Shown here one piece after another: positions 5,287 to 64,000 of a DNA stretch of 64,000 nucleotides. The notes under the pieces were generated by a model. That model saw nothing but the letters and a program-made list of their open reading frames with translations. It searched no databases and was not told the DNA's origin. This DNA is from a phage. Position 1 is the stretch's first letter. Each line of letters begins with the position of its first letter. Location of the stretch: the sequence record PZ386963.1; one strand, written 5' to 3'. The position numbers were made by a program, and so were the translations under genes.

Positions 5287-5664
5287 ATGGCATATCAAGG
5301 TTTTACTAAGTTAGGTAACAGAGAACCTCTGAATGATATCATTCTTTGGGAACAGATTACCCCAACAGGCCACTCTCGTAAAGAGTACACTCCGGTTGCT
5401 TCAACAGAATACCGTGTAGGTGAAGTTCTGAAAGCAGACGGTACTAAGGTTACAGCAGGGCAAGAAGCTCAGGCTGATTCGGTATGTATCGTTAATTTCT
5501 ACGCAGACCTGCAACTGTCTTACCACGGTCAGTTGAAAGTTGTTGGTATCCACCGTGATGCAGAACTAAAAGACCTGCTAATTCTTGAATCAAGCGTTGA
5601 TGCTGATGAAGTCAAGAAAGCTCTGGCTGCTAAAGGTATTGATTTCGTACCAACTGGCCTGTAA
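5287..5664 (+). CDS. putative head decoration / head-associated protein
   Basis: 125-aa ORF directly upstream of major capsid gene. Confidence 0.3.
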   Translation: MAYQGFTKLGNREPLNDIILWEQITPTGHSRKEYTPVASTEYRVGEVLKADGTKVTAGQEAQADSVCIVNFYADLQLSYHGQLKVVGIHRDAELKDLLILESSVDADEVKKALAAKGIDFVPTGL

Positions 5665-5697
5665 TAACAATAATAAGACATTCTGGAGAATTTTACA

Positions 5698-6804
5698 ATG
5701 TTGACTAATTCTGAAAAAAGCAGATTTTTCCTTGCTGACCTGACTGGTGAAGTCCAGTCTATCCCAAATACTTATGGGTATATTTCCAACTTAGGTCTGT
5801 TCCGTTCAGCACCAATCACCCAAACTACTTTCCTTATGGACTTGACTGATTGGGATGTTAGCTTGCTTGATGCGGTAGACCGTGATAGCCGTAAAGCAGA
5901 GACTAGCGCACCTGAGCGTGTTCGTCAAATCAGCTTCCCAATGATGTACTTCAAAGAAGTTGAAAGCATTACTCCTGATGAGATTCAGGGTGTACGTCAG
6001 CCAGGCACTGCAAATGAACTGACTACTGAAGCTGTAGTACGTGCTAAGAAGCTGATGAAGATTCGTACCAAGTTCGATATTACTCGTGAGTTCCTGTTTA
6101 TGCAAGCTCTGAAGGGTAAAGTTGTTGATGCTCGTGGTACTCTGTACGCTGACCTGTACAAGCAGTTCGACGTTGAGAAGAAGACTGTTTACTTCGACCT
6201 TGACAATCCTAATGCTGACATCGACGCTTCTATTGAAGAACTGCGCATGCACATGGAAGACGAAGCTAAGACTGGCACTGTAATCAACGGTGAAGAAATT
6301 CACGTAGTTGTTGACCGTGTATTCTTCAGCAAACTGGTTAAGCATCCTAAGATTCGTGACGCTTATCTTGCACAGCAGACTCCACTGGCTTGGCAACAGA
6401 TTACTGGTTCTCTGAGAACTGGTGGTACTGACGGCGTTCAGGCTCATATGAACACCTTCTACTACGGTGGTGTTAAGTTTGTCCAGTACAACGGTAAGTT
6501 CAAAGACAAGCGTGGTAAGGTTCACACTCTGGTGAGCATTGATAGTGTAGCAGCAACTGTTGGTGTTGGTCATGCCTTCCCTAACGTATCTATGCTGGGC
6601 GAAGCTAACAACATCTTCGAAGTGGCATATGGCCCATGTCCTAAGATGGGTTATGCAAATACACTTGGTCAGGAACTGTACGTATTCGAATACGAAAAAG
6701 ACCGTGACGAAGGTATTGACTTCGAAGCTCACTCTTACATGCTGCCATACTGCACTCGTCCTCAGTTGCTGGTAGATGTTCGCGCTGACGCTAAAGGTGG
6801 CTAA
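5698..6804 (+). CDS. major capsid protein
   Basis: 368-aa ORF following protease/scaffold; good RBS (GGAGAA); synteny. Confidence 0.6.
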   Translation: MLTNSEKSRFFLADLTGEVQSIPNTYGYISNLGLFRSAPITQTTFLMDLTDWDVSLLDAVDRDSRKAETSAPERVRQISFPMMYFKEVESITPDEIQGVRQPGTANELTTEAVVRAKKLMKIRTKFDITREFLFMQALKGKVVDARGTLYADLYKQFDVEKKTVYFDLDNPNADIDASIEELRMHMEDEAKTGTVINGEEIHVVVDRVFFSKLVKHPKIRDAYLAQQTPLAWQQITGSLRTGGTDGVQAHMNTFYYGGVKFVQYNGKFKDKRGKVHTLVSIDSVAATVGVGHAFPNVSMLGEANNIFEVAYGPCPKMGYANTLGQELYVFEYEKDRDEGIDFEAHSYMLPYCTRPQLLVDVRADAKGG

Positions 6805-11257: not shown

Positions 11258-19261
<8,004 letters not shown>

Positions 19262-32852: not shown

Positions 32853-33017
32853 ACATTACTGCAAAAAATTATAAAAAGCAAGTTGACAATGCACTTGACA
32901 AGGTGTTAATCTTTGCGAAGTGGGTTTTTACTTAAAAGGTTACTTAACAGTTTAACTATACAGATACTTTAAAACTCTTAAAAGATTATTTAATAGCTTT
33001 TAAAAAGCTTTAAAGTA

Positions 33018-33036
33018 TAACGTATAGAATACGTTA
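33018..33036. promoter_or_regulatory. palindromic site TAACGTAT-AGA-ATACGTTA overlapping a TAGAAT -10-like hexamer
   Basis: Read directly in divergent AT-rich intergenic region, about 45 bp upstream of first early gene. Confidence 0.35.
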
Positions 33037-33079
33037 AGATAAAAGATTAAAACTTAATAGTTACTTAAAAGAGGCTTAC

Positions 33080-58487: not shown

Positions 58488-58502
58488 TAAGTAATTTCTT
58501 AA

Positions 58503-58530
58503 AAGGCTGCTTCGGCGGCCTTTTTTATTT
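58503..58530 (+). terminator. rho-independent terminator with TTCG tetraloop
   Basis: AAGGCTGC-TTCG-GCGGCCTT (one G-U pair) then TTTTTTATTT. Confidence 0.6.
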
Positions 58531-58556
58531 GTATTTTGTGCAGAGTGCTGTATAAT
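58528..58556 (+). promoter_or_regulatory. promoter-like element with consensus TATAAT -10 and weak -35
   Basis: TATAAT at 58551-58556; TTGTAT/TTTGTA 16-17 nt upstream. Confidence 0.3.
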
Positions 58557-58587
58557 TGTTGTCACGATAAACTAAACAGGAGAACCA

Positions 58588-60284: not shown

Positions 60285-60296
60285 GGTTAAGATACA

Positions 60297-60318
60297 GGCT
60301 CCTTCGGGAGCCTTTTTC
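60297..60318 (+). terminator. rho-independent terminator with TTCG tetraloop
   Basis: GGCTCC-TTCG-GGAGCC then TTTTTC. Confidence 0.6.
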
Positions 60319-60336
60319 ATTTTAGGAGATTGTTAA

Positions 60337-61942: not shown

Positions 61943-62135
61943 CTTCTGTAAAGACTGTTCTATCGAAATGTTCGGACGTGATACAGGTGACTTAAAAGGT
62001 CTTATCACTGAAGATGACTTTAAAGCTGGTTATGCAATGCCAGTAATCTGTGAAGGTTGTGGGTGCATCTGGGTAGACCATGAGGGGCAACGTGTAAAAC
62101 CTTCAGAAGATAAAGAATCTTGGGAGAGATGTTAA
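61938..62135 (+). CDS. small zinc-ribbon protein
   Basis: CKDC ... CEGCGC cysteine pairs; start taken at ATG 61938 within ORF 61857..62135; stop abuts macro-domain gene start. Confidence 0.35.
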   Translation, partial: ADFCKDCSIEMFGRDTGDLKGLITEDDFKAGYAMPVICEGCGCIWVDHEGQRVKPSEDKESWERC

Positions 62136-62921
62136 ATGGGTATTGTAAAAATCATCAATGGTGATATCTTTGCTGCATTTGATAAAGGTAAGTTTGACAT
62201 CATTGGTCATGGTTGTAACTGTATGAACCTAATGGGTGCAGGTATCGCTGATAAGATTTCTAAACTTTACCCAAAAGCATATGAGACCGATACAGAAGTT
62301 TATCTATATGCAGGTGGTATAGGCCACAAACCCTGTGAAAATTTACTGGGTAATTTCTCCGTAGCACGTTTAAAACAAGGTCGTATAGCTAACCTTTACA
62401 CTCAGCTTAAGACTGGTAAAGATGCACGATACAGTGCTTTAGAGTCATCTTTGAAACAGCTTAACAGATACTGTGAAGTTAACCAGTTGAAGAAGGTTGG
62501 TCTACCTATGATTGGTGCAGGTATCGGTGGACTTGACCCTCAAGCTGTCACAGTTATCATCAATCAGGTGATGAAGGGTGTAGATGTTTATCTGTATGTC
62601 TATGAAGGAGAGATGTACCACAAGTTACGCTCAGGTTGGAAGAACTACTGTGAACCAGAATACTTTGCAGGTGTAGCAGTGTTCACAGATAACGCAGTTA
62701 CCCTCTTCAGACGAAGAAAAGGTAAGATACATCAAAGTAACCCTCCGGTTGAAAAGATGTCTCTAAGTAATGCTCTAGTTACCCACCTGTCGAAGAGCAA
62801 TCACAGAATTGCTGTAACATTTGGTAGTGATGCAGAAGCTTATATCTATGCAAGAACTGATGAGGATATCGAGGCAATCTTCTCTTCACCAGAAGTTACC
62901 TTCTTAGACGCAAAGAACTAA
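62136..62921 (+). CDS. macro-domain (ADP-ribose binding/processing) protein with C-terminal extension
   Basis: INGDIF..DIIGHGCNCMNLMGAGIA..GLPMIGAGIGG follows the macro-domain GDIT/NAAN/GGGV/glycine-loop order; 261 aa. Confidence 0.5.
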   Translation: MGIVKIINGDIFAAFDKGKFDIIGHGCNCMNLMGAGIADKISKLYPKAYETDTEVYLYAGGIGHKPCENLLGNFSVARLKQGRIANLYTQLKTGKDARYSALESSLKQLNRYCEVNQLKKVGLPMIGAGIGGLDPQAVTVIINQVMKGVDVYLYVYEGEMYHKLRSGWKNYCEPEYFAGVAVFTDNAVTLFRRRKGKIHQSNPPVEKMSLSNALVTHLSKSNHRIAVTFGSDAEAYIYARTDEDIEAIFSSPEVTFLDAKN

Positions 62922-62990
62922 GAAACTTCGTAGTATATTCACAATAGACTAAGCCTTTCTTATCTGGTAAATTTTTCAGGTAAGGAGGGC

Positions 62991-63176
62991 TTTTTCATTT
63001 CAGATTTGTGCAGGTAAAGTTCTGTAGAGAAATCTATAGAGAAAATTTTGAACTCCAAAGAGAAAATTCATTTTCAAACTGTGCAGGTAATCTCCAAAGA
63101 GCTTTTTCATTTTCAAAACGTGCAGACCCCGCTCAGGTCGGGCAAGAAAAATCATTTTAGAATTGTGCAGGTAGGT
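62991..63176 (+). repeat. four direct repeats, consensus TCATTTTCAAANNGTGCAGGTA, plus tandem GTAGGTGGG x2
   Basis: Copies near 62991, 63064, 63103, 63147; GTGCAG core conserved. Confidence 0.7.
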
Positions 63177-63348
63177 GGGTGTAGGTGGGGCTGTCGCCAT
63201 TTCTCACAAGGCTACCACATCTGAAAATAAAAGTCAACAGAAAAATTTGTAGCGGATTGAAAAATAATTCTTGATTGTAGTTCTGTTTTGTGTTAGTCGT
63301 GCGCGCCCGTTTCATTCCATTTTTGCAAAAATATTTTTAAAATTCCTA

Positions 63349-63377
63349 TTGACTCTTTGAGTATGGTTATCTAATAT
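63349..63377 (+). promoter_or_regulatory. sigma70-like promoter TTGACT-17-TAATAT
   Basis: Read directly, about 50 bp upstream of 63428 gene; identical hexamers to 22833 element. Confidence 0.45.
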
Positions 63378-63427
63378 TTGCATCAGACGGGCAATCAAGC
63401 CCACTTCCTAAACTGGAGAATCTAAAA

Positions 63428-63634
63428 ATGCTTTACAGTCGTGAATTGATGGTTACAACTAACGTTAACACAAAGGTAAAACGTTTTTACATGCAAATTT
63501 GTGGCGTATGGTCTAGAATATCAGAGGCTGACTATTGCAACTATGTAGAAACAGCTATAAACTCTAATTGCTACCTTACAAGAAATACTAAGAATTTTAC
63601 AAGGCAAACAGCGATTTGCTATTACGATAAATAA
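63428..63634 (+). CDS. hypothetical small Cys-containing protein
   Basis: 68-aa ORF with GGAGAATCT RBS. Confidence 0.3.
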   Translation: MLYSRELMVTTNVNTKVKRFYMQICGVWSRISEADYCNYVETAINSNCYLTRNTKNFTRQTAICYYDK

Positions 63635-63721
63635 AAGTACTTTACATGGGGCTTAAAAGTCTGTAAAGTAAGCCCCAGATAAAGAGCTTTACCAACAACC
63701 TTAAACTAGGAGAATCTGAAA

Positions 63722-64000
63722 ATGGCATATCGCGCACCTAAATTCATCAACAAAGACAACTTTCGCAACGCACTGGAGAAGTCACTTGATGAGGATTTTA
63801 AAGGCAATGTTATTGTTGTCCACGCATTCAATTTTAAGTATGATATTAACGGGAACAGAATCAACCATTACACGGCAACAATGTTAGATGGCACACTTTC
63901 AAGTGAAAAAGCCATTATCAATGCACTTGCAGGACGTGGGAAAAACCTGATAAGATGCGATAAGAGACGTTATCAAGGTGGCGCATATGGTTACGATGAT
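63722..64000 (+). CDS. hypothetical protein, 3'-truncated at window end
   Basis: ATG with near-identical RBS context to 63428 gene; open to window end. Confidence 0.3.
   Translation, partial: MAYRAPKFINKDNFRNALEKSLDEDFKGNVIVVHAFNFKYDINGNRINHYTATMLDGTLSSEKAIINALAGRGKNLIRCDKRRYQGGAYGYDD

Follow-up and report, generated by a model that had tools for sequence, protein, structure and literature searches.

Gene context and layout of the array

The window, i.e., the whole 64-kb stretch of phage DNA that was analyzed, belongs to a Felixounavirus (Ounavirinae): bases 62000-64000 gave matches to 254 phage records, nearly all of them from Felixounavirus, and the closest records, garuso and Barry, are ∼94-95% identical. 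Near its right end, a macro-domain gene is separated from the first gene of an early block by a gap for which the earlier note had given about 500 bp without coding function and which was measured as 506 bp (62922-63427). In Bas63 (JohannRWettstein, MZ501086), with which the window is roughly collinear, the same gap is located at 64.06-64.57 kb of 87.1 kb. The following features, all on the plus strand, were identified:

62136-62921, +, open reading frame of the macro-domain protein (261 aa), left neighbor of the array
62951-62992, +, Rho-independent terminator with a 17-bp stem, T-run entering R1; annotated in Barry and wV8
62995-63016, +, repeat R1, 22-mer TCATTTCAGATTTGTGCAGGTA; core TCATTTCAGATTTGTGCA at 62995-63012
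63021-63044, +, 12-bp tandem pair TCTGTAGAGAAA / TCTATAGAGAAA in the long spacer between R1 and R2
63068-63089, +, repeat R2, 22-mer TCATTTTCAAACTGTGCAGGTA; with the long-unit flank CTCCAAAGAG 63053-63085; core TCATTTTCAAACTGTGCA at 63068-63085
63107-63128, +, repeat R3, 22-mer TCATTTTCAAAACGTGCAGACC; with the long-unit flank 63092-63124; core TCATTTTCAAAACGTGCA at 63107-63124
63152-63173, +, repeat R4, 22-mer TCATTTTAGAATTGTGCAGGTA; core TCATTTTAGAATTGTGCA at 63152-63169; flank GGTCGGGCAAGAAAAA
63171-63225, +, variable tract, here G-rich, with two copies of GTAGGTGGG
63229-63310, +, second conserved non-coding block, AAAAGTCAA.AGAAAAATTTGTAGCGGATTGAAAAATAATTCTTGA..., with long invariant runs
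63326-63377, +, A/T-rich UP-like stretch and sigma-70 promoter TTGACT-17-TAATAT (hexamers 63349-63377)
63404-63634, +, conserved leader, ribosome-binding site (CTTCCTAAACTGGAGAATCTAAAAATG) and first early gene (68 aa; 63428-63634)

The macro-domain assignment is based on a Pfam Macro match in the Bas63 orthologue. In a fold search with an AF2 model of the protein only macrodomain matches were obtained, and TARG1 and the DarG macrodomain were the nearest folds. The terminator downstream of this gene is t13 of Felix O1, which at −21.8 kcal/mol is the most stable terminator in the table for that genome (PMC3185647), and its U-tract forms the T-run at the 5′ side of R1. The promoter is the first one of the block of small early genes, and its −35 hexamer is invariant in 29 relatives. 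The leader motif has already been described for phage Mordin (PMC4611695); the first early gene itself is not conserved in Kolesnikvirus.

To the left of the array lies a long plus-strand operon for replication, nucleotide metabolism, rII, spanins and the macro protein. To the right, ∼6.5 kb of small plus-strand genes, each apparently with its own promoter, are followed by a non-coding region of 1-1.9 kb that contains the terminal repeat. The order plus-strand operon, terminator, array, early block and terminal non-coding region could be found in Felix-like phages, in Kolesnikvirus M7 and in L063-type phages, L063 being a distant 88-kb metagenomic phage. The gene content of the early block differs between genera, and it is therefore to the inner edge of this terminal block that the shared gene order ties the array. 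The distance from the array to the right physical end is 7.3 kb (8.1%) in I14.1; it is 7.7 kb to the end of the record in M7 and ∼7 kb to a large TGTTA-rich non-coding region in an L063-type phage.

The four same-strand copies start at 62995, 63068, 63107 and 63152, and their start-to-start spacing of 73, 39 and 45 bp bears out the four direct repeats of about 22 bp at irregular intervals of 40-75 bp that had been proposed in the earlier note. As also proposed there, R2 and R3 have a longer unit in common, which begins with CTCCAAAGAG at 63053 and 63092. The conserved unit is smaller than the 22-mer: it is bipartite and 18 bp long, TCATTT-N7-GTGCA, and the trailing GGTA of the 22-mer is lineage-specific and lies outside of it. 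When searched with at most three mismatches, the earlier 22-mer consensus was found at 3 sites, where 0.01 are expected, and a degenerate form of the core was found at exactly the 4 array sites, where 0.17 are expected, so that chance can be excluded as the source of the repeats. The suggested search for further copies yielded 4 exact matches in the complete Bas63 genome (87.1 kb), all of them within the array, and in the 64-kb window the motif occurs outside the array only as one degenerate copy. The repeats are real, genome-unique and non-coding. The degenerate fifth copy is located at 58525, after the rIIB terminator.

Two candidate classes could be discarded at this level. As the earlier note had also held, the array is not a CRISPR array, since identity between its copies is no higher than 64-82% over 28-34 nt, their spacing is irregular, the “spacers” are conserved among relatives and no cas genes were found nearby. 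A dispersed promoter or regulatory motif was likewise rejected, since exact copies are confined to one array and only the degenerate copy at 58525 lies elsewhere.

Conservation in the Ounavirinae

A comparison with relatives showed that the array is kept across the Ounavirinae, which strongly contradicts the lack of conservation that the earlier note had named as part of what would refute its reading. An array of 3-6 copies was present at the syntenic place in every lineage examined, i.e., in Felixouna-, Moogle-, Susp-like and Kolesnikviruses and in two more distant metagenomic relatives; copy number and position are conserved subfamily-wide. The macro gene is kept next to the array in all lineages but L095, where 4 genes lie in between. 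Among 29 distinct Felixouna-, Moogle- and Susp-like sequences the spacing is 72-77/39-41/43-45 bp. Major-allele frequencies were computed on these 29 sequences:

Two half-sites (core): mean 0.98, 31 of 44 positions invariant
N7 spacer: mean 0.87, 4 of 28 positions invariant
Between-unit sequence: mean 0.88, 24 of 104 positions invariant
Tract 63171-63225 after R4: mean 0.72, the lowest in the gap
Block 63229-63310, scored as 63226-63310: mean 0.91

Judged from these frequencies, selection acts on the two half-sites and the spacers drift. The two copies of GTAGGTGGG (63171-63179 and 63181-63189), which the earlier note had described as a tandem following the repeats, are indeed present at 63171-63189, but they belong to the least conserved stretch of the gap, and many relatives, namely wV8-like, Moogle- and Kolesnikviruses, have a C-rich tract at this place where the window is G-rich. 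The idea that the G-rich tract is an inverted C-rich tract was rejected, since 840 of 1000 shuffles reached the score of the inverted alignment.

Outside the Felix-like phages, the array follows the same macro gene in the Kolesnikviruses of Erwinia and Salmonella, with 4 copies spaced 37/37/39 bp apart. BLASTN between the Felix-like and Kolesnikvirus genera detected the array alone (match at window positions 63067-63169). R2-R4 of the Felix arrays align with R1-R3 of Erwinia phage M7, R4 and its flank being orthologous to unit 3 of M7, which means that the two arrays are offset by one unit and yet contain four copies each. L063 has 2+2 copies with a spacing of 36/148/38 after a short macro gene, and in L095, whose macro protein is at 35% identity, a 37-47-bp unit is present six times (37/41/47/47/47). 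When 26 units from six lineages were compared, hardly any variation was seen in T-CAT-T and GTGCA. Natural variants were also found: finno, L049, L079 and L094 have three copies and lack R2, and LF110P2 has retained the array and lost the conserved block 63229-63310, the adjacent promoter and the first gene.

The array is absent from the more distant macro-gene neighbors L039, L040, L096 and L097. A scan of public viral contigs for a two-copy pattern returned Ounavirinae only, plus coding repeats, and the same scan of species-representative genomes yielded nothing but 21-bp tandem arrays from Bacteroidota and Ignavibacteria, which are unrelated; a similar array was absent from all Enterobacterales genomes in that set. 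No other non-coding element found in the early region is conserved as deeply as the array, which is also better kept than several of the flanking genes.

Felix O1-type phages, classic typing phages of Salmonella, are in wide use for biocontrol and as an engineering chassis (Bas63). To our knowledge, no replication origin and no early-gene control is known for them. The repeats are not described in the published descriptions of Felix O1, wV8, UAB_Phi87, Moogle/Mordin and Bas63, and a search with the sequence string was also empty. Whereas the kind of element, an iteron-like array of sites, is familiar, no description appears to exist of this family, of its motif or of its conservation throughout the subfamily. 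The 18-bp motif offers a precise, testable handle on the biology of these phages.

A probable protein-binding array and its possible role as origin or boundary

The array is a DNA-level, orientation-specific, multi-copy element, which is under selection and shielded from transcription. These features suggest, with a probability of roughly two in three, that it comprises the sites for one sequence-specific DNA-binding protein. One molecule of this protein would probably bind each 18-bp site, and with all sites in the same orientation a head-to-tail nucleoprotein complex could be formed in a stretch shielded by the very strong terminator upstream and by a next promoter that fires away from the array. 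The array marks the inner edge of the ∼6.5 kb of small early genes, a block that extends to the terminal repeat. Similar arrangements are known from F sopC (43-bp tandem units) and from R1-R3 of lambda cosB, where the sites of one protein recur with a ∼40-bp period, form a nucleoprotein complex and must stay untranscribed. In contrast to these systems, the phage studied here is virulent and has no partition genes, and its genome ends are set by cut sites 6.7-7.3 kb distant from the array.

The ligand would be a host protein or else a phage protein of very high conservation, because 11 core bases are unchanged between lineages whose proteins are at 35-65% identity. Other phage-specific signals, such as the motif in the 5′ leader, drift between lineages. 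Neither among 20 neighboring proteins nor among the 10-plus proteins of the replication module could an initiator, a helicase loader or another DNA-binding domain be recognized with Pfam and PHROGs. The sole helix-turn-helix protein is XRE-type and is encoded ∼38 kb from the array. The C-terminal domain of the macro protein was considered as a tethered binder and set aside, since L063 has the array and a macro protein that lacks this domain. [quoted passage not shown] Inspection by eye for sigma-54, sigma-E, marbox, CRP, EcoKI, Lrp, dif and Ter gave no convincing fit.

The earlier note had read the repeats as a cluster of sites for a phage or host protein, either as iterons of an origin or as a promoter/activator site. 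The generic part of this reading is supported by the conservation, whereas the origin part is put forward here only tentatively: by precedent and architecture, the array may serve as an iteron-type auxiliary, dispensable replication origin or as a site for replisome loading, a role that is only marginally ahead of that of a transcriptional boundary or regulator. In lambda, P22, SPP1, P4 and dairy phages, unique arrays of direct repeats in non-coding DNA turned out to be origins, which is the most frequent outcome for such arrays in phages. The four 18-22-bp plus-strand copies at a unique locus are asymmetric direct repeats of iteron size, and they share with the iteron origins (lambda ori with four 19-bp O-protein sites, P1 oriR, F ori2, R6K, pSC101) the number and length of the units (3-6 asymmetric direct repeats of 17-22 bp), the single orientation, the uniqueness within the replicon, the non-coding position and the freedom from read-through transcription. 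As in such origins, DnaA-box-like sequence is present in the units of some Ounavirinae lineages: the 3′ half-sites are 0-2 mismatches from the DnaA box in Kolesnikvirus, L063 and L095, each Kolesnikvirus unit containing one box with 1 mismatch. Furthermore, the copy number is held at four in the Felix and M7 arrays despite the turnover of units. The strong A/T-rich promoter is located 180 bp from the array, and the promoter together with the A/T-rich stretch would help in origin function or replisome loading.

Several observations speak against an origin. The spacing of 36-47 (73) bp is without the helical phasing of classical iteron origins, in which the units follow each other at ∼21-24 bp or multiples thereof, and no recognizable initiator gene is adjacent. 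In a calculation of duplex stability over the 64-kb window, no outstanding unwinding element was found next to the array: the UP region of the promoter (63311-63370) belongs to the least stable 1% of 40-bp windows but is not the extreme, as the least stable DNA is in the divergent gap between the DNA polymerase gene and gene 48 (32.8-33.1 kb). GC and AT skew show no inflection at the locus and track gene orientation. The Felix-like half-site is 3-4 mismatches from a DnaA box. The primase-helicase is T7 gp4-like (Toprim + DnaB_C), and replisomes of this type start at promoters or R-loops, not at iterons. An origin role also has to accommodate the three-copy natural variants and the tolerance of insertions in Bas63. 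The published barcode insertions in bas63_0096 (64142-64297), which covers R1-R4, have PhageMaP scores of +0.24 to +0.98 under all conditions inspected, and these match the scores of non-essential neighbors, whereas essential genes score negative, with ∼−1.3 for the DNA polymerase and ∼−1.4 to −1.8 for the DNA ligase (10.1101/2024.10.10.617714). These scores cover “gene 96” of Bas63, “gene 97” being without data. The neutral insertions argue against a sole essential origin.

It is also possible, if slightly less probable than an origin, that the array acts on transcription. A phage or host protein bound to the sites, together with the terminator, could insulate the operon from the early block or roadblock transcription between them, or it could switch the first early promoter or promoters on or off. 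The array is flanked precisely by the most stable terminator on one side and the first strong sigma-70 promoter on the other, and its place at the head of the block is kept in Felix-like, Kolesnik- and L063-type phages though the genes of the block differ. Dispensability in rich laboratory culture would fit a regulatory element, and the ancestral C-rich tract after R4 might suit Rho loading on read-through RNA. Multi-operator regions, such as the asymmetric P1 C1 operators and the phi29 p4 sites, are likewise clustered between a terminator and an early promoter and are dispensable in the laboratory. However, the sites described here are direct and not dyad-symmetric, no regulator gene was found nearby, and they are 180-350 bp upstream of the promoter, in a block where each early gene apparently has a promoter of its own. 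The strong promoter-like element that the earlier note had placed at 63349 corresponds to TTGACT-17-TAATAT at 63349-63377, but it begins ∼180 bp past R4, and it is lost together with the first gene in LF110P2, which keeps the array; in L095, no promoter was seen beside the array before the contig ends. Either an origin or a switch for the early block would matter for phage engineering and for the reading of knock-out screens.

Less probable roles

By analogy with phage T5, the array might be a checkpoint for DNA entry, or a polar barrier, at which a host protein bound to the array at the membrane would pause entry after the terminal ∼8% with the early genes has been transferred; this is considered unlikely. 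In T5, the first-step-transfer segment comprises 7.9% of the genome, and at its end lies a conserved region of repeats that contains DnaA boxes (10.1101/866236). The array of I14.1 is at 8.1% from the end, with similar distances in M7 and L063-type phages, and, like the injection stop signal in Repeat Region 3 of T5 (Davison, 10.1101/866236), it is a conserved untranslated repeat cluster ∼8% from the genome end that borders small early genes of the host-takeover type and is more conserved than the surrounding genes. A host ligand would fit the unchanged core across hosts, and DnaA-box-like half-sites are present in three lineages, i.e., only in part of the Ounavirinae, the Felix-like half-sites being poor DnaA boxes. 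Repeat Region 3 itself is different: it is 1.2 kb long, lies mostly inside a 10-kb terminal repeat and consists of inverted repeats, palindromes and paired DnaA boxes (10.1101/866236), whereas the Ounavirinae array consists of four simple direct repeats outside a terminal repeat of 0.6 kb. In addition, the early genes point toward the genome end and not away from it, a literature report that Felix O1-type phages transfer their DNA in two steps was not found, and the mechanism is unproven for T5 itself. If true, the array would set off the terminal ∼8% of Ounavirinae genomes as an early segment that is delivered or handled separately, and it would be a second, independent case of T5-style two-step genome transfer, with a simple four-site array to which a conserved host protein binds.

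With a similarly low and slightly smaller probability, the array could be a decoy, by which the multicopy phage DNA would soak up a conserved host DNA-binding protein without any role of its own in replication or transcription. The core is unchanged in phages of Escherichia, Salmonella, Citrobacter and Erwinia, and the array is dispensable in laboratory strains. None of the enterobacterial factors compared fits, however (DnaA and IHF by scan; sigma-54, sigma-E and marbox by eye), and the species-representative genomes of Enterobacterales contain no similar array.

It is rather improbable that the units are an evolutionary relic, i.e., functionless tandem duplications of the descending arm of the terminator and its T-tail. 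R1 does overlap the tail of the terminator, the flanks of the units (CCAAAGAGCTTTTTCATTT) are similar to AAGGAGGGCTTTTTCATTT in the terminator, a second terminator (60296-60323) has the same tail, TTTTTCATTTT, and the degenerate fifth copy also follows a terminator, that of rIIB. Against this, the 11 core bases and the copy number are kept at 35-65% protein identity while neighboring bases drift, and the Kolesnikvirus array is separate from the terminator.

Still less probable is an element that acts as RNA (a small RNA or a protein sponge) or as small protein-coding genes. A minus-strand open reading frame of 51-66 codons persists in most Felix-like genomes, and open reading frames are annotated over the array in several records (wV8 gene 13, bas63_0096/0097, Michonne gp098), but the annotated frames conflict in strand and frame between records. 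The variable columns are distributed as 61/58/58 over the positions modulo 3, showing no codon periodicity; frames are broken by frequent indels of 1, 2 and 4 nt, and the unit spacings of different genera differ by non-multiples of 3. At the RNA level, no promoter reading into the array was predicted and the strong terminator is upstream, folding was no better than that of shuffled sequences on either strand (z-scores of +1.0 and −0.6), and the best Rfam match, with 23 bits versus a threshold of 50 bits, fell on the terminator. The annotations of open reading frames across the array should be corrected. Knock-out screens at present score it as two “hypothetical genes”.

A genome terminus or a packaging site of the pac or cosB type for the terminase is largely refuted, as the two ends of the I14.1 record carry the same 581-bp sequence without mismatch, a repeat that starts 6.7 kb downstream of the array and that, when mapped in UAB_Phi87, predicts SpeI end fragments of ∼2.75 and ∼4.43 kb. 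Bal31-sensitive SpeI fragments of 2819 and 4322 bp and a terminal repeat of 608 bp have been reported for UAB_Phi87 (PMC4837284). What had pointed to a terminus was the resemblance of three or four repeats ∼40 bp apart to lambda cosB, the array adjoining TGTTA-type repeats like those of the terminal-repeat region in L063 and L095, and the many assemblies that break in or near the gap. These breaks can be attributed to the G4-prone C/G-rich tract, adapter read-through and low-quality reads, and the contig end of L063 to a 55-bp circular-assembly overlap at a repeated terminator.

The macro-domain gene and the three-copy array

Window 62136-62921, + strand: macro-domain gene, left neighbour of the array

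In a fold search with the AF2 model of the macro-domain protein, the nearest structural matches were TARG1 and the DarG macrodomains, the class that takes ADP-ribose off DNA. This likeness of the predicted structure suggests that the protein may serve in counter-defence against DarT-type DNA ADP-ribosylation. The protein has an additional beta-rich C-terminal domain (about residues 175-261), to which no fold family was assigned.

A different allele of this gene, encoding a protein of about 42% identity, accompanied the three-copy array, which lacks R2, in every case (finno, L094, L049 and L079), and the terminator was likewise different in all of these variants. The co-occurrence of the three-copy array with a different macro allele and a different terminator points to a recombination breakpoint within the array, between R1 and R3.

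Other elements in the array gap and outside it

Window 63229-63310: second conserved non-coding block, long invariant runs in 29 relatives
Window 58501-58560: degenerate fifth copy of the array motif, TTATTTGTATTTTGTGCA, 1 mismatch
Window 63404-63430 and 63698-63724: conserved leader CCTAAACTGGAGAATCTAAAAATG, 5' of successive early genes
Window 63634-63693: 57-bp repeat containing a terminator, the same repeat as reported for Felix O1

When the 29 relatives were aligned, conservation of the block was on par with that of the repeats (mean major-allele frequency 0.91, and 0.98 for the array half-sites). No promoter, terminator or RNA family was recognised in the block, and it is deleted in the variant LF110P2. 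The fifth copy lies directly 3' of the rIIB terminator, overlaps a promoter TTGTAT-16-TATAAT and is kept in Bas63 and in L049/L079. The leader corresponds to the 'start-associated sequence'-like repeat reported in phage Mordin (PMC4611695).

TGTTA repeats and the gap at the DNA polymerase gene

I14.1, L010 8447-9360 and L009 1-1040: TGTTA-rich region, direct repeats, many with 11-bp period
L063-type phage, L063/L100 joined sequence 5600-5800 and 13000-13650: TGTTA repeats
Window 32853-33079: gap separating the divergent DNA polymerase gene (-) and primase-helicase operon (+)

TGTTA direct repeats were massively enriched in the non-coding region containing the I14.1 terminal repeat (29 per 1.37 kb; background 1.7/kb). 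In the L063-type phage, a distant relative, 10 TGTTA were found in 140 bp directly 3' of the TCATTT-N7-GTGCA array. These repeats are a second candidate family of protein sites, distinct from TCATTT-N7-GTGCA, and their architecture is similar to that of ArcA-P sites.

The divergent gap includes the least stable DNA of the entire window, as judged by duplex stability, and holds an imperfect palindrome of 27 nt; it is a candidate alternative origin or early promoter.

Look-alike arrays, assembly breaks and record classification

Prevotellaceae and Ignavibacteriales MAG contigs (L084-L091) carry long tandem arrays of 21-bp (or 42-bp) units, e.g., TCATTTTTTCGTGGTGCAAAG, often at contig ends, which match the outline TCATTTT-N6-GTGCA. 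They are probably unrelated satellites or iterons whose likeness to the phage array is due to chance.

Public assemblies break repeatedly in the array gap (ends of L013, L014 and L094; L007/L008, which are KhF1, KT184313). Two IMG/VR contigs end within the C-rich tract, both at an identical base, and one of them continues into Nextera adapter. A Logan contig has adapter at its end, immediately 3' of the promoter -35 hexamer (TTGACTCTTTGAG). The beginning of the KhF1 record duplicates the record's end, at low quality and with Ns. The record lineage of vB_EcoM_I14.1 (PP892526.1, L009/L010) is Demerecviridae/Tequintavirus; in sequence and gene order, this phage is a Felixounavirus.
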